This document shows positions 3,067 through 45,356 of a stretch of DNA of 64,000 nt, piece by piece. Both the position numbers and the translations under genes were made by a program. Within the stretch, counting starts at the first letter, position 1. Every line of letters starts with the position of its first letter. Source of the stretch: an uncultured Alistipes sp. (GTDB taxonomy: Bacteria > Bacteroidota > Bacteroidia > Bacteroidales > Rikenellaceae); assembly GCA_944323075.1 (NCBI GenBank), contig CALURC010000016.1, positions 711,446 to 775,445 on the forward strand. The letters run 5' to 3'. Below the pieces are notes generated by a model. It did not search any database and was not told the origin of the DNA. It worked only from the letters and a program-made list of their open reading frames with translations.

Positions 3067-3918
3067 TTAATCAATCAACAATTTTTCGACTTTATTCCAC
3101 TCTATCATTTCTTCGGCAGTCATAAGATCAATAAATCTAAAATCCGTAAGCCACTTTCGCATTTTTTTCTCCGCATTTTGTAGACCATAATATGATTTAA
3201 AACGTCTTAACAGACTCAAATCTGGAATCTTCGGCTGGCAATAATCCAAATCCCGAGGATGAATGTAACTTAGTAAATATCCATCAGATTCGTTAGTCCA
3301 TTTTTTTATTAGACCATATGGGAAAAAACGAAAATATCCTCCTCCCGAAAAAATTATATGTTTTCCATATATCGTTTTATATGTTATCGGAAACTCTTTT
3401 ATTTCTATCCCACCTTTACATATAATAGACGGACCTTTTGCTGAATAGGTTGCCATTCCTCCATGAGCATGATGTGCAGGGAATATTGAACAGTCAATCG
3501 TTATTCCTAGTTCATGTAAAATTTCAAAAGCCCATACTTCTGATTCCCGGATAGAGAAACCCGGAGCCCGAAAAGCCTCAACCTTTTGGCCACTAATATC
3601 TTCTAACAATTTAATCGATGAGGATACATCTTCCTTAAATTCGGCGACGGACTGCTGCCAAACCAATTGATGATTCATCGTATGGCTTCCTATCTGATAT
3701 TTAGCAGCAATTTCCCTAACAACATCTGGATAATTTTTTGCAACCCACCCTATTATAAAAAAGGTCGCTTTTGTATTGGTATCCTCCAAAATACGGAAAA
3801 TACGTTCCATATTTTGATAGATACGCACTTCATAATTCCGCCATTGTGTTTCAGAACGTGTGGAATCATTATCCAAAAGATGGAACCACTCTTCTACATC
3901 AATTGTCAAAATATTCAT
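3067..3918 (-). CDS. Polysaccharide deacetylase (NodB/CE4-like, DUF3473-type)
   Basis: LTIDVEEW, ATFFIIG, IGSH, FRAPGFS, GGGYFR, YIHPRD motifs. Confidence 0.9.
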   Translation of the reverse strand: MNILTIDVEEWFHLLDNDSTRSETQWRNYEVRIYQNMERIFRILEDTNTKATFFIIGWVAKNYPDVVREIAAKYQIGSHTMNHQLVWQQSVAEFKEDVSSSIKLLEDISGQKVEAFRAPGFSIRESEVWAFEILHELGITIDCSIFPAHHAHGGMATYSAKGPSIICKGGIEIKEFPITYKTIYGKHIIFSGGGYFRFFPYGLIKKWTNESDGYLLSYIHPRDLDYCQPKIPDLSLLRRFKSYYGLQNAEKKMRKWLTDFRFIDLMTAEEMIEWNKVEKLLID

Positions 3919-19817: not shown

Positions 19818-20444
19818 CTAAGAATTATGCTTCATTTTCAATTTGTATCCTTTTCCTGTCTTTTCAAGAACCCCTTGTCGCACCAGTTGAGCGATTGCGC
19901 GAGATAAGGACGGACGTGTGACCCCAAGAATAAATGCGGTCTGCTGAAGATTCTGAATCGAACCGTTATTTTCAAGATAGCCGATCAATCGAGAGGATAA
20001 CGTCTGCAGAGCAAATTGCTCCAGTTTACGGCTCAAAAAGAGGCTATGATCCGAAAGTACCGCCAAAAAATTGTGTAGAATCGCCCGATCCTGTTCAATA
20101 AGCGACAATACACAGGCTTTATTAATAATCCACAATTTACAGTCCGAATGGGCAATCATAGTGATAGGCAAAATATTCTCTGTACCAAAAAGAAATGCAG
20201 AAGCCAAAACATCCGGTGCCGATAGGGTATCGAGCGTGAACTCACGTCCTTCATCACTGATCATCCGAGCATAAACACTTCCTTCACACAAAACATACAG
20301 CGAACGGCAAACGCTGTTCTGCATGGCAATAAACTCCCCCTTACGATAGGAGCTGAAACGACTGGGATACTTTTCGAGTATACCGTCCACTACCGTCTGA
20401 TCACAACCCCGAAAAAGAAGCGTATCATAAATTCTTCTATCCAT
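19818..20444 (-). CDS. Crp/Fnr-family transcriptional regulator, HcpR-like
   Basis: cNMP-binding-like N-domain (LYVLCEGSV) and C-terminal HTH with GVTRPSLSRAI recognition helix. No FNR N-terminal Cys cluster. Confidence 0.88.
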   Translation of the reverse strand: MDRRIYDTLLFRGCDQTVVDGILEKYPSRFSSYRKGEFIAMQNSVCRSLYVLCEGSVYARMISDEGREFTLDTLSAPDVLASAFLFGTENILPITMIAHSDCKLWIINKACVLSLIEQDRAILHNFLAVLSDHSLFLSRKLEQFALQTLSSRLIGYLENNGSIQNLQQTAFILGVTRPSLSRAIAQLVRQGVLEKTGKGYKLKMKHNS

Positions 20445-20477
20445 AAAACACTATTTTACAACAAAATAGCGGAATAC

Positions 20478-20521
20478 GTAACAAATGTTACACCAAATCG
20501 TATTTCGCCTTTATACTTTTG
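20478..20521 (+). promoter_or_regulatory. Crp/Fnr-type operator plus activator-dependent promoter of the lipoprotein operon
   Basis: Perfect palindrome GTAAC-AAAT-GTTAC (20478-20491) and TACTTTTG -7 box (20514-20521); no TTTG -33 element. Confidence 0.7.
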
Positions 20522-20599
20522 CGCACAAATGAATAATAGACAAATTCCAATATGACTATTGGGAACCGACAAGTACAAATATACAAAACATCGAAACCA

Positions 20600-22459
20600 A
20601 TGAACAGAATTGTGTATGTTTTATCGCTCTGCCTCATTATCTTGAGCTCTTGTCGTTCGGACACATGGATGGAACCCGTTTCTCCGGACAGTGCAAGACA
20701 AGGTATCGCCTTCAAACTGCGATACGAAGAGTTCGAGGAGGCGAGCAACCGATCTGCTTCGCTTCTCGACACAGACTATGATCGTGTAGAGTTCTGCATC
20801 GTCGATGAAAGTGGAGACGTAGTAGACGGAATCAAAGGTCTTTATGATTCGTCCCGTTCCGAGATACGAATCGAAGGACTACGTGAAGGCAATTACCGAC
20901 TTTTGATCTTGGGAATCGTGGGAGACGAAACTGCCGATGGTGTCACAATCACGCCGATACGACACATCGACGAAACTTGGTTACAGTTTCCAGCCGACCT
21001 GCACAAACCGCTCGAAGCAGAATATTTCTACTCACAGACACCTTTTTCGGTTGTCCGGAGCTCCGGTCCCTCTGGAGACGAGCTGACCGCTCAGCTCGAA
21101 GAAGAGGTCGTACAACGCCGGATCATCGGACGCACGGATTTCTCGTTTACATTCAACAATCCGTATGTCGAGAGTGCCCTTTCGACCCGGAATGTCATCC
21201 TGCACGCGCCCCGTTTCCTGACCGATTTTTCCGGATCCGGATCATTTTCGGGAGAAACAGACGGAACGGATGTCTCGATGGATCTCCTCTCGACCTGCTC
21301 TTACCTGTTTCCTCCCACCACCGAAGGAAACCCTTTAGGCGGAGAGATCGAACTGACCACCCGCAACTATCGCGGAGAGACGGTACGCCGTACGTACGAC
21401 TTCACGTTGCGGGAGATCACACCGAACCGTATCGGAAAGATCCACACGACACTCATACATCCGGATGATCCCTCCGGCACGGCGTTCATTACCGAACAGG
21501 TGCTCAAAACGGCCGACTTGAGCTATATCCTGCAAGACGACGAGCCGCACTCCATCTACACGAACTCCTCGTTGCGCTCATTCAACACGTCTGCACCGCT
21601 TCAGGTATCCATCACGGAAGAGGGACAACTTCACGTCCGGTTCTACTCTCCGCGCGATCTGAGCGATGTGCTGATTCAGGCTCTGATTCCTTCGGTAAGC
21701 AGTGAGTATATCGATCTGGCCTATTTTGACCGTATTCCCGCATTTGCCGATTTTTACGGCGAGCTGCGCTCCGTGCAACACAAAACTTTTTTCCGCTCGG
21801 AGTCGGGACGCATCGTCGAGACCGGTCCGATTCTCCTCTCCGAGCTGACAGCTGCAACTTTCCGCATCACCTCGAACGATCCCTTCTGGAGTAAGCTCGA
21901 AGCCATCGAACATGGGTGGAACATAAGTTTCTCTCTTTACGGAGGGAATCCTGAACTTCCGGACGGAGGCCCGGTAGGCAACTGGATGGGAATCCGACCG
22001 GTACACTGTCGGGAAGCCGTAGCCCTGTTCCTGAACTTCACCTACATGATCGACATGCCCGAACATGAAGAGATTCTCCGTACGAACGTTGACCGTCTCT
22101 ACGGCAACGGAGGTCCAACAGACAAAGTTTCCGTCGAGACAGTCCTGCAACAGATGCGACAACGTCGGACTTTACAGGTCGGATTGGTCTATCCGGGTAA
22201 CGGTGTCATTGGACTCGGGGGTGGAAATGTATTCGGAGCCTACCAGCAGGCTTGGTTCCAACACTATTTCAACACCTACTCCTGCGAGATTCTTTTCCAT
22301 GAGTTGGGACACGTCATGGGATACAACCACAGCAGCTCATTCACCTATGGGCCGTGGGCACAGGAGCTGATGAATCGCTTCTATGTCGAACACATCACCG
22401 AAATGCCCATCGATTCGCCATCTTACCTGAAAAGCGAACAGAATCCTAATAAATACTAA
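20600..22459 (+). CDS. Lipoprotein with pilin-like N-terminus and C-terminal metzincin-type zinc metalloprotease motif
   Basis: Start at ATG 20600 gives MNRIVYVLSLCLIILSS-C. HELGHVMGYNH fits HExxHxxGxxH, followed by ...QELM. Confidence 0.75.
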   Translation: MNRIVYVLSLCLIILSSCRSDTWMEPVSPDSARQGIAFKLRYEEFEEASNRSASLLDTDYDRVEFCIVDESGDVVDGIKGLYDSSRSEIRIEGLREGNYRLLILGIVGDETADGVTITPIRHIDETWLQFPADLHKPLEAEYFYSQTPFSVVRSSGPSGDELTAQLEEEVVQRRIIGRTDFSFTFNNPYVESALSTRNVILHAPRFLTDFSGSGSFSGETDGTDVSMDLLSTCSYLFPPTTEGNPLGGEIELTTRNYRGETVRRTYDFTLREITPNRIGKIHTTLIHPDDPSGTAFITEQVLKTADLSYILQDDEPHSIYTNSSLRSFNTSAPLQVSITEEGQLHVRFYSPRDLSDVLIQALIPSVSSEYIDLAYFDRIPAFADFYGELRSVQHKTFFRSESGRIVETGPILLSELTAATFRITSNDPFWSKLEAIEHGWNISFSLYGGNPELPDGGPVGNWMGIRPVHCREAVALFLNFTYMIDMPEHEEILRTNVDRLYGNGGPTDKVSVETVLQQMRQRRTLQVGLVYPGNGVIGLGGGNVFGAYQQAWFQHYFNTYSCEILFHELGHVMGYNHSSSFTYGPWAQELMNRFYVEHITEMPIDSPSYLKSEQNPNKY

Positions 22460-22472
22460 AAAACCGACGACA

Positions 22473-24722
22473 ATGAACTATCTGAAATATTTGAATATCG
22501 TATTTTGCGGCATACTTCTCCTGTCGGGATGCCATAAATCTCCGGAGAGCGACCTGCCGACACCCGATGCGGGAACGATCTCTGTCCGCTTTATCCCTGA
22601 AGAACCGGCTACCAAATCCTTCACTCTATCCAAAACAGCACAGGGAGAGACGAATGATCAAGCAATCGGACAGGTCATCGGATACCGTTTTACACAAGGC
22701 TTATTCCGTGAATCGATTATTGGCGAACCGTCCGGAACGGATGGAGTCTACACGTTTCATCCGAGCTCACGTTTGGGAGAGATCTACTTTATTGCAAACG
22801 GACCTTCGGAGATGTCCAGCGAACTGCAACCGGATGTATCCACACAGGATGAATTTCTGGAACTTTACGCCACGGACGAAGAGATGACCGCATCGGGATT
22901 CACGATGACCGGGAAGGCCTCCTTGGACGAGCTCACCTCAACACCAGTGACCATTCGGCTTCGCCGTACGGTTGCCCGCATCGACCTTGTAGTACAAGAG
23001 CGAGGAGTAGCCGTCCACGAGGTAACCATACGGGGCATTGCGGATCGTGGATACCTCAACGAACGTAACAACGTGAGCAATCCGGCGGCATCGGAGAGAA
23101 CGGACTTCCTCAAAGAGTACGCCGACACTCCGTTGACAAACTCCCGGGAAACGCTGTTGTACCTCTGTGAACAGACGGGAGACGTCTTGAGCGTGGAGGT
23201 GATCGCCGACATCGATGGAGGCTTGCACCGGATGACCGCAACTTTCCCCTCGGAGATCCTTCGCAACCGGATATACACCATACAGGTGCATGGGAACGGA
23301 GCCTCCGCCTCTCTCTCCGTTGTCGCCGACAATTGGGAAGAGGGTGATTCAGTAGAGTCTTCTCCCGACCTCAAAGGAGTGATCGACGTCGAAGCTTCGG
23401 TCCTTCCCGAATCGGTTCGGATCAATTCATCCTGCGATTCGGTTTATATCTCTTCCCAAGTAGTAGAATTTCAGTTGGTACTGCGGGCTGAAGCCGAATC
23501 GGATGTAGCGATAGAGGGTACCGTACGGGGCGTAACGACACAGGTTGAGACACTGACCAAGTCCCTGCAACCGGTCGCTGCCGTTTCAGTAGCAAGCGAT
23601 CGACGGCTTCCCGGAGAGAAACAGGCCTACCTCTACCTGAACCTTCACCGCGACGGACTCTACTCCGGACGCATCGTGCTGGTCTTCGAACCGAATCCGG
23701 TTGTCATTACCGGAGCGATCACCTTCGATGAAAACGGCATCTGCGATTTTGGGAAATACGTCGACGGAGAACTGGGCCGGATGAAACTTCCGGAGGGGAA
23801 AACCGCCCGTTTAGAGTTCGACTCGGGAGAGGATGCATGGATGAAACTTGTCGACGATCAGGGCGAACTGCGCATCCTCGGAGGCTGGAAACCCAACGAT
23901 CCGAAAGCCGACGGACGAACCCAAGAGGGACGAATCATCATTGCGGATGCCGACGGATCGAACTCGGAAAGTTACTCTCTCCGTAGGCGTAACTGGGGTC
24001 TTCCGGTGGTCGAGATCGACGGTACATGGTGGTGTAAATACAACCTCCGGGGAAGCGTCAAAAAGTTCGAAGACCAGATTTCGATTCAGGCCGATCCTGC
24101 TTCGGACCGTGAACTGGCCGATTACCTGAACACGTGCGACGAGGACGAATTGCTTCGATTAATGGGAGATCAATATCAGGGAGGTACACAACAGGGACTA
24201 CCGTTAGGGTACGATGGAACCGCTTTTCTGTACGAAGGGATGCGCTCTTCAGGCGGAAACTTCGGCACTCTGGACCCCACCCTCATGGCTCCCGACGGGT
24301 ATCAGATTCCGGACTACAACGACTACGCCTTTTTCAGTGCCAACAACAATTTCAACCTCGGAGGAGTCGGTTCCCGAAGCTATAAGAATGCAGCGGGACA
24401 GGAGATTACCGTACGGATTATCGAACGGGATGTCACTTTCTTGGGACAACATTACGGGAACGTATCGTTTTATGAATTTCAAACCGAAACAGGATACTGG
24501 GTTCTATACGGTCTCGGACACCAGTGGAACACCACACCCGGCAACATTTCGACCAAGATGCTGTTGCTCGCGACCTACGGCAACAGTGCAAACTGCTGGG
24601 TGATGGAGGGCTATGCCCAGAGCGACCGTCCCAACCAAAACTGGTTGAAATTCATGAACCAGAACTCAACCAAAACCCGAACGATCCGCTGCATCAAGAG
24701 TCCGGTAGAGTATATTTATTAA
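22473..24722 (+). CDS. Type V pilin/adhesin-like lipoprotein (FimB/Mfa2-like N-terminus, Fib_succ_major-like C-terminus)
   Basis: LLLSG-C lipobox, PATKS, IYFIAN, LRRTVARIDL, ILRNRIYTI, APDGYQIPDYNDY, RTIRCIK. Confidence 0.65.
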   Translation: MNYLKYLNIVFCGILLLSGCHKSPESDLPTPDAGTISVRFIPEEPATKSFTLSKTAQGETNDQAIGQVIGYRFTQGLFRESIIGEPSGTDGVYTFHPSSRLGEIYFIANGPSEMSSELQPDVSTQDEFLELYATDEEMTASGFTMTGKASLDELTSTPVTIRLRRTVARIDLVVQERGVAVHEVTIRGIADRGYLNERNNVSNPAASERTDFLKEYADTPLTNSRETLLYLCEQTGDVLSVEVIADIDGGLHRMTATFPSEILRNRIYTIQVHGNGASASLSVVADNWEEGDSVESSPDLKGVIDVEASVLPESVRINSSCDSVYISSQVVEFQLVLRAEAESDVAIEGTVRGVTTQVETLTKSLQPVAAVSVASDRRLPGEKQAYLYLNLHRDGLYSGRIVLVFEPNPVVITGAITFDENGICDFGKYVDGELGRMKLPEGKTARLEFDSGEDAWMKLVDDQGELRILGGWKPNDPKADGRTQEGRIIIADADGSNSESYSLRRRNWGLPVVEIDGTWWCKYNLRGSVKKFEDQISIQADPASDRELADYLNTCDEDELLRLMGDQYQGGTQQGLPLGYDGTAFLYEGMRSSGGNFGTLDPTLMAPDGYQIPDYNDYAFFSANNNFNLGGVGSRSYKNAAGQEITVRIIERDVTFLGQHYGNVSFYEFQTETGYWVLYGLGHQWNTTPGNISTKMLLLATYGNSANCWVMEGYAQSDRPNQNWLKFMNQNSTKTRTIRCIKSPVEYIY

Positions 24723-24742
24723 CTAAGTCCGCTTTCTGAACC

Positions 24743-27052
24743 ATGAAAAAGATCAATAAAATGAGTATAAAGATTCGTGCAATAATAACCTGCGGAATAG
24801 TTCTCCTTGCAGGCATGAACTCCTGTTCGAAATCGGAGTCCACTACGGAACCGCCCCACATACCGCCCTCCGATTCAAGCACATTCGTCACCCTTCAGAC
24901 GACCGACTACGAGGTTGCCGGCGAGGAGATCGCCGGGGAGAACGAACTGCAAGAGCTCCGGGCCTACCGGTTCGAGAACGGACATCTGGTCCAAATTCTC
25001 GACCGTCCGACCACCGGCTCCGAGGGCTATGGGTTCCGACTCGATCGCCCGGTCGGCACGCTCTACGTCGTATCGAACACAAACGACATCTCCGCCCTCA
25101 ACAACCTGCAAGGCTCCGGGATTTCCGAGCAGGAGTGGCTTAAACTTACGACCGGCACGAAGGAGGGGCTACCGATCCGATTCTTCTCCGGCAGTACCTC
25201 CCTTTCGGGAAGCTTGTCCAAAGTGGTCAAAATGACCCGCGGATTTGCCCGCTTCGATCTACAGATCCGCACTTCGGGAGAGACAGCAATCGAATCTCTC
25301 ACTTTGGGAAACTGTACGCTCTCAACCCCTCTCTTTGCCGATACTGATTCGGGCTCCACGGCTCCCCAATCGGGTAATCTGACGATCCAGCCCGACAAGC
25401 CGTACACCCAGGACACTCCGGGCTTCGCGTACGTTTACGAACAGACGGACACCGAGGCAACGCTTTTTGCCGAAGCGATCATCGATGGAGAACGGACCCA
25501 CCTCGAAACAAAACTTCCGGAAATCATCCGAAGAAACTGCATATATGTCGTAAGCGTAACGAAAGAGGAGTCCGACGCGGCTGTTCAACTGACTGTCGAA
25601 GCATGGCAGGAGGGCGACCAGATCGGAATGCACCCCTGTTTGGACGGCACCATCACGGTGGATACCGACCGGTCGGAGCTCCCCGAAACCGTTACCGTTA
25701 CCGACAGCGGAACAAAGCTGATTCTACCGCACAACCTTACAGACTTTCTTTTGGCTTTAGATTGCGACGATGAGCTGGAGCTTCTTCCACCCGACAACGA
25801 CGATTTGACCATCGAGCCACTGGGCTCCGTACAGGAGACGTATGCCGTAAATCTGTTTCGGATCCAGAAGCCGCTGTTCGCACCCGGGATGCCCACCCGA
25901 ACGGTTGAGCTCAAATTCCGACGGAAAGGGTTAAACAACGTCTATCCCGAAGACCGAATTTTGGTCACCCTTTCGGCCAATCCTGTCGATCTCGAAGGGG
26001 AAATCTCCTTCGACACGAAGAGCTACTCTTTCGACTTCGATCGCTACGTCGACAATGAGCTGGGACGTTTCACCGTGCCGTCCAACAAAAAACTCACGGT
26101 AGAGTTCGAGGCCGGTGAAGATCCGTGGATCAAACTCGCTCCCAGTGACGAAGACAGTCACACACTCCGCGTACTGGGCGGATGGAAGCCGAACGATCCG
26201 ACAGCCGACGGCCGGATTCAACGGGCCACACTCGTCATCTGCAATGCAACCGACGGTTCTGAACGGGAAGAGTATCAGATCTCTCGACGCAATTACGGTC
26301 TGCCGGTCACATGGTTCCATGGTGTCTGGTGGTGCAAATACAACGCTCGGGGCAACTCCAAAAGTTTCGACGATCAGATTCTCTGCGCCTCCGATCCAGC
26401 AGTTGCTGCGGGTAAAAGCGTTCTCGACTACCTCCGGGACTGCTCGCCCGAGGAGTTCTACGATCTGTGGGGTTGGGCCTACCAAGGCGATAGCGGAATC
26501 GGCCTGCGGGTGGTCGAACAGAACGACACAGTCGTGATGGAGGGCTTCTCATCATCCGTTTCTGCCCACATCAACAAGCTTCCGGCCGACGCCTTGGCTC
26601 CCGACGGATATGAACTTCCCTCGATGGAGGAGTTCAACCGGATGTTCGACGCAACCGACTATGTCTGGATGATGTGGAGTGGCTCTCACCTGCTGCGAAA
26701 CCCGTGGGAAGGGCACAGCAAGGTCATCCGGGAGCAACGTCGCCGCAACGACCTAAGTGTTGGCACAGTACAGACTCCCGACCTGATCTACATCGGCATG
26801 TCGAGTCCCGACTTTCCGGACTTCGAACCGGTCACTTGGTACGGTCCCGGAGCCCAATGGAATGCGGACGGCATAAAACACGCCAACCACTACAACAACA
26901 TCTTGTTTGCAGTACATTCACCGGAAGGCACGGGATGGTACATGGCCGGCAACATGTCTGCTCTCCACCTGCAGAAAAACGGTGCGGGAAATAAAGATAC
27001 CCGTATCCTTCGTTTCAAAAAATCGCCAGTAGAGTATATATATGGAGAATAA
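24743..27052 (+). CDS. Type V pilin/adhesin-like lipoprotein, paralog of 22473..24722
   Basis: AGMNS-C lipobox, LYVVSN, MTRGFARFDL, IRRNCIYVV, APDGYELPSMEEF, RILRFKK. Several blocks shared with the upstream gene. Confidence 0.65.
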   Translation: MKKINKMSIKIRAIITCGIVLLAGMNSCSKSESTTEPPHIPPSDSSTFVTLQTTDYEVAGEEIAGENELQELRAYRFENGHLVQILDRPTTGSEGYGFRLDRPVGTLYVVSNTNDISALNNLQGSGISEQEWLKLTTGTKEGLPIRFFSGSTSLSGSLSKVVKMTRGFARFDLQIRTSGETAIESLTLGNCTLSTPLFADTDSGSTAPQSGNLTIQPDKPYTQDTPGFAYVYEQTDTEATLFAEAIIDGERTHLETKLPEIIRRNCIYVVSVTKEESDAAVQLTVEAWQEGDQIGMHPCLDGTITVDTDRSELPETVTVTDSGTKLILPHNLTDFLLALDCDDELELLPPDNDDLTIEPLGSVQETYAVNLFRIQKPLFAPGMPTRTVELKFRRKGLNNVYPEDRILVTLSANPVDLEGEISFDTKSYSFDFDRYVDNELGRFTVPSNKKLTVEFEAGEDPWIKLAPSDEDSHTLRVLGGWKPNDPTADGRIQRATLVICNATDGSEREEYQISRRNYGLPVTWFHGVWWCKYNARGNSKSFDDQILCASDPAVAAGKSVLDYLRDCSPEEFYDLWGWAYQGDSGIGLRVVEQNDTVVMEGFSSSVSAHINKLPADALAPDGYELPSMEEFNRMFDATDYVWMMWSGSHLLRNPWEGHSKVIREQRRRNDLSVGTVQTPDLIYIGMSSPDFPDFEPVTWYGPGAQWNADGIKHANHYNNILFAVHSPEGTGWYMAGNMSALHLQKNGAGNKDTRILRFKKSPVEYIYGE

Positions 27053-27074: not shown

Positions 27075-27111
27075 AAGGGCGAACCATTCGACACCGGACA
27101 GGTTCGCCCTT
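27075..27111. terminator. Hairpin between the convergent lipoprotein operon and araC-like gene
   Basis: AAGGGCGAACC...GGTTCGCCCTT, 11-bp perfect stem. Confidence 0.75.
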
Positions 27112-27153: not shown

Positions 27154-28044
27154 TCACGTCCGATCTGGATGTCGATATCTTACGACATATACATTACGAT
27201 ATGTACAGGGCGTTTGCTGCGTACACTTTTTGAACACCGAGTTAAAATGCGACAAATTGCGAAATCCGCATTCGTAAGCTATTTCTGAAATCGGTTTATT
27301 CGTATTAGCCATCAATGTACAGGCATAGGCTACACGCAACTCGTTCAAAAACGTCACAATGGTTTTTCCCGTAATACTTTTAAAACGACGGCAAAGAGCG
27401 GATCGATTCATGCATACGTTTTGAGCCAAGATATCAAGCGATATCGGCTGTTGATAATGAGTATTCAAATAAGAAATAACCTTCGAACATACCGGATGTA
27501 AATTTTCTGAATGATGCTGAAATCGGGATGATGCCAAAAACATATATTTGGATCGTCCCAAAAGGTCCAAAATCCGATATAACGTCAGAACCTTTTCAAT
27601 GCCTTCTGCTTCCGCCATCGATCGAATCAATCCGATTATTTCATCGCGATCCTGAATCTGAAAACCGATTCCTCGATCGGCATCCTTCAACACTTTGTTA
27701 ACCGTCCGAAACTCGGGCATCCGTTCATACTGTTCCGGTAAAATATGCTCGCCAAATTGGACGTATATCGATCTGCATCTCTCCCGACAAGTAGCCTTAT
27801 AGAAGCGGTCTTCACTCAAATAAAAGTGTGGTAATCCTTTTCCAAAGAGAGCAAGATGCCCCTGCGAAAATTTACCATTGTAATCTCCGCAAAAACAGAT
27901 CCCGTCACCCTCTTCAATCAAAACAAGCTCATACTCCGGATGGAAATGAAGCGGAGCCGTAAAGTGTGCCGCCTCGAAAACAGCGACCTTAAATGAGCTG
28001 TCACGATCAGGAACGACCTGCTCGAATTCCATTTGAGTCATCAC
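27154..28044 (-). CDS. AraC-family regulator with cupin-like sensor domain
   Basis: PLHFHPEYEL, RVAYACTLM, IAYECGFRNLSHFNSVFKK. Confidence 0.92.
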   Translation of the reverse strand: MMTQMEFEQVVPDRDSSFKVAVFEAAHFTAPLHFHPEYELVLIEEGDGICFCGDYNGKFSQGHLALFGKGLPHFYLSEDRFYKATCRERCRSIYVQFGEHILPEQYERMPEFRTVNKVLKDADRGIGFQIQDRDEIIGLIRSMAEAEGIEKVLTLYRILDLLGRSKYMFLASSRFQHHSENLHPVCSKVISYLNTHYQQPISLDILAQNVCMNRSALCRRFKSITGKTIVTFLNELRVAYACTLMANTNKPISEIAYECGFRNLSHFNSVFKKCTQQTPCTYRNVYVVRYRHPDRT

Positions 28045-45169: not shown

Positions 45170-45182
45170 TCGAAAAATTATT

Positions 45183-45213
45183 TTTGCAAATATACGAAAG
45201 TTGTTTAATTTTG
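45183..45213. promoter_or_regulatory. Overlapping divergent promoters (ffs on +, mltG on -)
   Basis: + strand TTTG (45183-45186), 19-nt spacer, TAATTTTG (45206-45213). - strand TATATTTG at 45194-45187. Confidence 0.65.
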
Positions 45214-45217
45214 TGGC

Positions 45218-45313
45218 GGGTAAGTCTTATACGACCAGCTCCTGCTGAATCCCCCAGGGTCGGAAGACAGCAAGGGTAGGTGGTTGTAGCGGTGCGATAT
45301 AAGTAGCTTACCC
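45218..45313 (+). ncRNA. ffs: SRP RNA (4.5S)
   Basis: Terminal pairing GGGTAAG/CTTACCC and domain-IV signature CAGG-gtc-GGAA-gac-AGCA. Starts 5 nt after a consensus promoter and is followed by a T-run. Confidence 0.88.
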
Positions 45314-45356
45314 CTTTTTATTTTCTGCCAGAATACGGCATAATCTCTTCACGGGC

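Follow-up and report, generated by a model that had tools for sequence, protein, structure and literature searches.

What does a Crp/Fnr-family regulator control when it carries the recognition helix of an HcpR and lies beside an HcpR-type operator, in a genome that contains no hcp gene? This question is raised by a divergent intergenic region (20445-20599) in a stretch of 64,000 nucleotides from an uncultured Alistipes species, here called the window, in which a regulator gene (19818-20444, minus strand, 208 aa) lies on one side and the first lipoprotein gene of a three-gene operon starts at 20600 on the other. A first-pass annotation of the sequence had interpreted the region as a class II operator for a Crp/Fnr protein, with a motif and a helix of the HcpR type, and this reading is supported by the analysis described here. 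The observation that underlies it is confirmed as real, and is far beyond chance once the context and the conservation of the operator are counted.

The operator and its promoter

The predicted site of the regulator, GTAACAAATGTTAC, occupies 20478-20491 (with no strand assigned, centre at 20484.5) and is separated from the regulator ATG (20444) by the 33 nt of 20445-20477. The first-pass annotation was correct as to the position and the centre of the site and its closeness to the regulator gene, and less so in two details: it described the palindrome as perfect over 14 bp, whereas 12 of the 14 bases are palindromic, with two arms of six (GTAACA/TGTTAC) flanking a non-symmetric central AA, and it counted 34 nt to the start codon where there are 33. 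The consensus of the operators in the family is cGTAACAwwTGTTAC. An A/T-rich inverted repeat (CTATTTT...AAAATAG, then TTTT; 20446-20472, minus strand) lies immediately 5' of the regulator ATG. It was considered as a conserved element and discarded, as no conservation in the other lineages is apparent by eye.

On its own, the bare motif is not significant, while its context and conservation are. The exact box is expected by chance 0.04 times per 64-kb window and occurs in two copies in the genome of 2.5 Mb, about as many as chance would produce; the second exact copy of GTAACnnnnGTTAC (contig C1:184766-184779) falls within a gene that codes for a lipoprotein of 1186 aa and is probably a chance occurrence. 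The composite pattern, in which the box is followed after 22 nt by TAnnTTTG, has an expectation of 0.03 per window when up to two mismatches are allowed. A genome-wide scan for the motif, which the first-pass annotation had proposed as a way to define the regulon, returned 824 sites with up to two mismatches, and the operator at 20478-20491 is the only one of them with a TAnnTTTG element 20-24 nt away, so that the composite is found once in the genome, before the operon at 20600-27052.

The element in question is a perfect Bacteroidota -7 box on the plus strand (TACTTTTG, 20514-20521), which lies 22 nt downstream of the operator, ends at 20521 as had been annotated, and marks the candidate promoter P1. 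In two transcriptome studies of Bacteroidota, TAnnTTTG was placed at -12 to -5 (PMC9723704, PMC6847099). When this published register is applied to the -7 box, the start of P1 is predicted at ~20526 and the centre of the operator, given the 22-nt gap, falls at -41.5. The first-pass annotation had arrived at a position near -42, and hence at class II, by calibration on the SRP RNA of the same window; the position holds in the published register, while the calibration itself is ambiguous. Rfam places the Bacteroidales small SRP RNA at 45211-45317, and its start could be assigned to either of two candidate -7 boxes, one upstream of it (TATTTTTG, 45179-45186) and one that overlaps it (TAATTTTG, 45206-45213); for this reason the SRP RNA was rejected as a calibrator and the published registers were used. 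The earlier statement that TTTG is missing at -33 is confirmed by the sequence around this position of P1, where 20486-20498 reads TGTTACACCAAAT. Since the -33 element is poorly conserved across Bacteroidota (PMC6847099), its absence is weak evidence in this phylum. A scanner for sigma-70 promoters and terminators gave counts at or below chance and is not applicable to Bacteroidota.

The regulator and the missing hcp

The regulator matches the Pfam domains cNMP_binding (PF00027, E 1e-12) and HTH_Crp_2 (PF13545, E 1e-5), and its best solved relatives are HcpR of P. gingivalis (9day, E 1.5e-22) and TM1171 of Thermotoga (1o5l). Its recognition helix, TRPSLSRAIAQL, reads R177-P178-S-L-S-R182, so that it has both the Arg-Pro pair of CRP positions 180-181 and the Arg of position 185, and these residues are invariant in 116 family members. 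Rodionov et al. (2005, PMC1274295) linked the HcpR2 consensus, GTAACnnnnGTTAC, to a Pro at CRP position 181, and exactly the helix of the regulator is also found in an hcp-adjacent regulator that has GTAACATTTGTTAC as its box; the proposal that motif and RPSLSR helix match HcpR-type regulators was thus borne out. In a sample of 21 hcp loci of related Bacteroidales, hcp-adjacent regulators with an RPSL[AS]R helix adjoin GTAAC-N4-G[T/A]TAC boxes, and those with RQALER adjoin GCAAC-N4-GTGTC. The frdX-hcp promoters of 10 other Bacteroidales genomes have 22-23 nt between the box and TAnnTTTG, and the gap of 22 nt between the operator and P1 matches that of these genuine frdX-hcp promoters. By genetics, HcpR is an activator, as loss of the haem ligand Met68 reduces hcp expression to <10% in P. 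gingivalis (PMC12750200) and hcp is no longer transcribed in B. thetaiotaomicron once hcpR is deleted (PMC13370916).

Outside the helix, the relationship is more distant. The regulator is ~30% identical to characterised HcpRs and forms, with its orthologs, a clade of its own (100/100 support, with a stem of 1.86 changes/site in a tree that carries a long-branch warning), which stands apart from the hcp-adjacent regulators as well as from a second Crp/Fnr clade that is common in Alistipes and to which the paralog encoded on contig C8 belongs. Because of the ~30% identity and the long branch, it is only the helix that serves to transfer DNA specificity from HcpR to this protein. No hcp (hybrid cluster protein, PF03063) was found in the genome of the window, and the other ortholog-bearing genomes (G005, G012, G019 and G042) lack PF03063 as well, whereas 22 of 61 relatives have it, so that the co-occurrence with hcp by which HcpR2 is recognised is found in none of the five regulator-bearing genomes that were searched. 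The question posed by the first-pass annotation of whether hcp elsewhere in the genome has the palindrome is void, because the genome lacks hcp. To judge from its sequence, the regulator appears to be HcpR-like in DNA recognition and not an HcpR by function, and it is best treated as an uncharacterised subfamily of its own, HcpR2-like at the DNA level and without a link to hcp.

Some residues hint at the nature of the signal. M61, H133, C46, C53 and C102 are conserved to 97-100% in the 116 family members, and M61, which is 99% conserved in the family, aligns with Met68 of P. gingivalis HcpR; the His149 of the latter is replaced by Glu in the regulator, and flap residues differ too. A haem- or thiol-based sensor is plausible from this pattern, with a gas or redox signal perceived through haem as the first guess, given that the regulator retains the Met that ligates haem in the P. 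gingivalis protein. The genome also harbors a second Crp/Fnr gene (contig C8:71209-71784; L002 1477-2139), which encodes a protein of 220 aa with the helix TRSALQTV and 28% identity to the regulator. It sits between YraN-like and KdtA-like genes, and its clade is common in Alistipes genomes that have no box.

The conserved cassette and its target operon

Orthologs of the regulator, 56-96% identical, were identified in two other Alistipes species, two uncultured Rikenellaceae, Candidatus Alistipes avistercoris, a genome of another family (G042), a Barnesiella-like contig, whose encoded protein is named by one source for Barnesiella viscericola DSM 18177, and one further metagenomic lineage, and the comparison of upstream regions covers the lineages with readable upstream DNA. 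The box, the 22-nt gap and the -7 box are invariant in eight diverged lineages from Alistipes, other Rikenellaceae and Barnesiella, in which the layout is that of regulator, box, 22 nt, -7 box and genes of ~620, ~750 and 550-770 aa. When seven lineages are aligned on the box, the top base has a mean frequency of 0.97 over the box and of 0.91 over the -7 box, as against 0.52-0.53 in the spacer and the upstream flank, and the spacer of P1 has no -33 or AT-rich feature that is conserved across the lineages. A palindrome that failed to recur upstream of orthologous operons had been named in advance as an argument against the operator; it is conserved in every lineage that could be read. The genes that flank the regulator, the box and genes 1-3 differ from lineage to lineage, which suggests that these elements travel together as a cassette. 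In the Barnesiella-like contig (L068), whose regulator is identical to the protein named for DSM 18177, the box reads GTAACATTTGTTAC and is followed after 22 nt by TACTTTTG. An extra gene of ~300 aa, without a Pfam match, lies between genes 2 and 3 in the Barnesiella-like contig (L068 2595-3497) and in one other lineage (L070 2755-3642).

Two lineages serve as natural controls. In G026, a homolog of gene 1 with 55% identity has neither the regulator nor a box upstream, and on a Phocaeicola plebeius-like contig (L077, 2906-10562) the three-gene operon is located behind an AraC-family gene, and both a Crp/Fnr gene and the box are likewise missing. The region upstream of the operon is a different sequence in these regulator-less lineages, and in G026 (L076, G026:C1:1-700) it is AT-rich and unrelated. 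As the operon is present without the regulator and without the box in both lineages, the box follows the regulator and not the operon. The expected position of the box reads ATGACAAATTCGAC in G026, which is possibly a decayed remnant. The AraC gene that comes after the operon in the window (27154-28044) was considered as the ortholog of the AraC gene of P. plebeius and rejected, as only the HTH domain matches, with 33%.

The co-occurrence of regulator, box, operon and hcp was surveyed in 61 genomes, over which the composite pattern has 12 matches versus 2 for a reversed control. The 12 matches comprise one each in the five ortholog-bearing genomes, three at hcp promoters and two each in the genomes G020 and G054. 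The regulon of the regulator appears to be one operon.

Both G020 and G054 are hcp-less. G020, from the Rikenellaceae, encodes a Crp/Fnr regulator of 219 aa with the same RPSLSR helix, and in this genome the box, the 22 nt and the -7 box precede genes for an alkylsulfatase-like lipoprotein, which has a metallo-beta-lactamase fold, and a MATE exporter (L073, C30:5600-10000, box locus 3504-3547), while a second site (L072, C28, locus 3358-3401) precedes a small membrane protein. In G054, which belongs to another Bacteroidales family, one composite (L075, C72:71-114) precedes nrfH-nrfA, encoding cytochrome c nitrite reductase, and the other (L074, C11, locus 3545-3588) lies before the gene of a small membrane protein, with a GH20-like gene downstream of it.

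The operon in the window is compact and read from the plus strand. Gene 1 (20600-22459) encodes a lipoprotein with a C-terminal metzincin domain that contains the motif HELGHVMGYNH, and its residues 317-583 match an entry designated "metzincin" (PDB 9tpb, E 3e-12). Gene 2 (22473-24722) encodes a lipoprotein with the lipobox LLSGC, in which an AlphaFold2 model (mean pLDDT 85.4) predicts an N-terminal type V pilin fold followed by a conserved C-terminal domain. The best fold matches of this model are BDI_3519, the tip fimbrial protein Mfa3, FimA and BF1861 (E 3e-10 to 5e-5, target TM-score ~0.5), so that gene 2 combines the lipoprotein signal and, in the model, the two-domain pilin fold by which type V (FimA/Mfa) pilus proteins are recognised. 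Gene 3 (24743-27052) is a paralog of gene 2 by sequence comparison (29% identity). The genes are separated by gaps of 13 nt (genes 1-2) and 20 nt (genes 2-3), and gene 3 is followed on the plus strand by a terminator-like hairpin (GGGCGAACC...GGTTCGCCC, 27077-27109), which was read from the sequence and had been missed by a simple scanner. None of the operon proteins belongs to a Pfam or NCBIfam family above threshold, and sub-threshold matches to Mfa2, Mfa_like_1 and Fib_succ_major recur among their homologs. The regulon thus looks like a set of surface pilus or adhesin proteins with a protease, and not like a detoxification system.

Proposed mechanism and relation to known systems

We infer that the regulator probably binds the operator and brings about class II activation of the three-gene operon. 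A dimer of the regulator would contact the operator through the HcpR2-type helix RPSLSR and, once bound at -41.5, would recruit RNA polymerase to P1 in a signal-dependent manner, leading to the expression of the metzincin lipoprotein and two adhesin-like lipoproteins with a type V pilin fold. The regulator would then be an offshoot of the HcpR2 group that kept the DNA specificity and promoter geometry of frdX-hcp and had its target rewired in genomes without hcp.

The same protein could act from the same site in the opposite direction, with the upstream half of the promoter occluded until a signal releases the regulator, and we regard such repression of P1 as unlikely. With its centre at -41.5, a bound dimer would extend into the -33 region and might repress from there, and Crp/Fnr proteins are able to repress from positions that overlap this region; moreover, the operon occurs without the regulator in G026 and P. 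plebeius, so that its promoter can work unaided there. However, these regulator-less lineages have a different sequence upstream of the operon, and the spacer of P1 lacks conserved -33 or AT-rich features. Steric repression has no need of phasing, whereas the lineages keep exactly 22 nt, the same gap as in the activator-dependent frdX-hcp promoters. It is because of this conserved helical phasing and identical geometry that activation is favoured over repression.

The regulator itself is encoded in the opposite direction, and its transcript may start within the leader of the operon. A candidate -7-like box for a second promoter, P2, is found on the minus strand at 20576-20583 (TATATTTG); it is conserved, and transcription from it would run leftward from a predicted start at ~20571. 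The corresponding motif, CAAA[T/G/C]ATA (TAnnTTTG on the minus strand), is present in all eight lineages, where it follows the P1 -7 box at a distance of 10-66 nt, but in only one of 12 hcp promoters, and the alignment of the lineages shows no -7 box conserved on the minus strand in the interval from the operator to the regulator ATG. The antisense box is a candidate promoter from which either the regulator mRNA or a SnoA-like antisense RNA could be transcribed, and it could also have a role other than that of a promoter. If P2 is the promoter of the regulator, its transcript would overlap the leader of the operon by ~46 nt and provide the regulator with a leader of 127 nt, and the centre of the operator would lie at ~+87.5 of this transcript. 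The regulator mRNA would probably start at this antisense promoter downstream of P1 and read back across P1 and the operator, so that the bound regulator or an active P1 would lower the synthesis of the regulator, constituting negative feedback.

With such a transcript, the functional form of the palindrome may be RNA: the leftward transcript would carry it as a hairpin, along with the complement of the P1 -7 box, and act in the manner of SnoA, together with or instead of simple DNA binding. There is a precedent at an hcp promoter, since SnoA is described as antisense to that of B. thetaiotaomicron hcp, with a 3' hairpin that aligns with the HcpR site (PMC13370916), and the antisense -7 box is, as described, conserved in all eight lineages. 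Against this, the hairpin comprises only 5-6 A/U-rich pairs, the fold of the putative 127-nt leader is not unusual (z -1.5), Rfam has nothing in 20380-20680, and the antisense box is found at anything between 10 and 66 nt from the P1 box. The simplest reading of the antisense box is that of the regulator's promoter, and we consider an RNA-based function to be quite improbable. That the palindrome is instead bound by the paralog encoded on contig C8, or is a chance or structural palindrome without a regulatory role, is very hard to credit: the genome does have this second Crp/Fnr gene, and the bare motif does occur at chance frequency, yet the helix of the paralog differs (TRSALQTV), its clade is found in most Alistipes genomes without the box, and the box, besides being strictly conserved, accompanies the adjacent regulator.

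The preferred reading of activation by the regulator can be extended into a physiological one, which is speculative and rather unlikely. In Alistipes and Barnesiella, a haem- or thiol-based gas or redox sensor of HcpR ancestry might respond to host NO, or to a related inflammatory cue, with the display of a protease-tipped, type V pilus-like structure and not with detoxification, by means of two face-to-face promoters from which the regulator mRNA or a SnoA-like RNA runs back through the operator.

The type of operator is known, and its wiring to a pilin/metzincin operon is the new part; a literature search found no description of this pairing of regulator and operon. The locus also shows that DNA specificity of the HcpR2 type is an unreliable marker of nitrosative-stress genes, which matters for the automated annotation of regulons. 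Along with the cases of G020 and G054, it suggests that Bacteroidales have employed this module of regulator and box repeatedly, for several targets that are unrelated to each other. Alistipes and Barnesiella are abundant gut commensals, and to our knowledge almost nothing is known about the regulation of type V pilus-like structures, or of most genes, in either of them. As a compact switch whose operator is defined, whose promoter geometry is fixed and whose regulon appears to be one operon, the locus lends itself to testing, and a cultured carrier of the same protein is at hand in Barnesiella viscericola DSM 18177, as named by a database source.

Among known systems, NtcA of cyanobacteria binds GTA-N8-TAC at -41.5 with 2-oxoglutarate as its effector. 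The sequence GTAACnnnnGTTAC is a subset of this motif and is predicted to occupy the same class II position, while the phylum, the effector and the regulon differ. Class II CRP- and FNR-dependent promoters of E. coli have the site centred at -41.5 and a gap of 22 nt to the -10 hexamer, and the arrangement described here has the same 14-bp dyad, whose 3' edge is 22 nt from the TA of the downstream element, the same centre, predicted at -41.5, and likewise no good upstream promoter element. In contrast, the sigma-A of Bacteroidota recognises TAnnTTTG at -12 to -5 and not TATAAT, and we know of no study of the contacts between activators and RNA polymerase in this phylum.

The SnoA locus (PMC13370916, bioRxiv 2026) has, like the layout proposed here, an antisense promoter downstream of the target promoter, the RNA of which would cross the -7 element and the HcpR box, and hcpR lies beyond, as the regulator gene lies beyond the operator here; the difference is that the putative antisense promoter here is a conserved -7-like motif and may simply be that of the regulator. 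The closest counterpart is HcpR2 with frdX-hcp (PMC1274295; PDB 9day/6np6, PMC12750200), with which the locus shares the Crp/Fnr architecture, the R-P...R helix, the GTAACnnnnGTTAC box, the divergent regulator gene, the gap of 22-23 nt to the -7 box, a local regulon of one operon and the equivalent of Met68. It differs in that the regulator is ~30% identical and groups in the tree as a separate clade on a long stem, that none of the five searched genomes which carry it has hcp, that H133, C46 and C102 are invariant specifically in this family, and that the target is an operon of pilin and metzincin lipoproteins.
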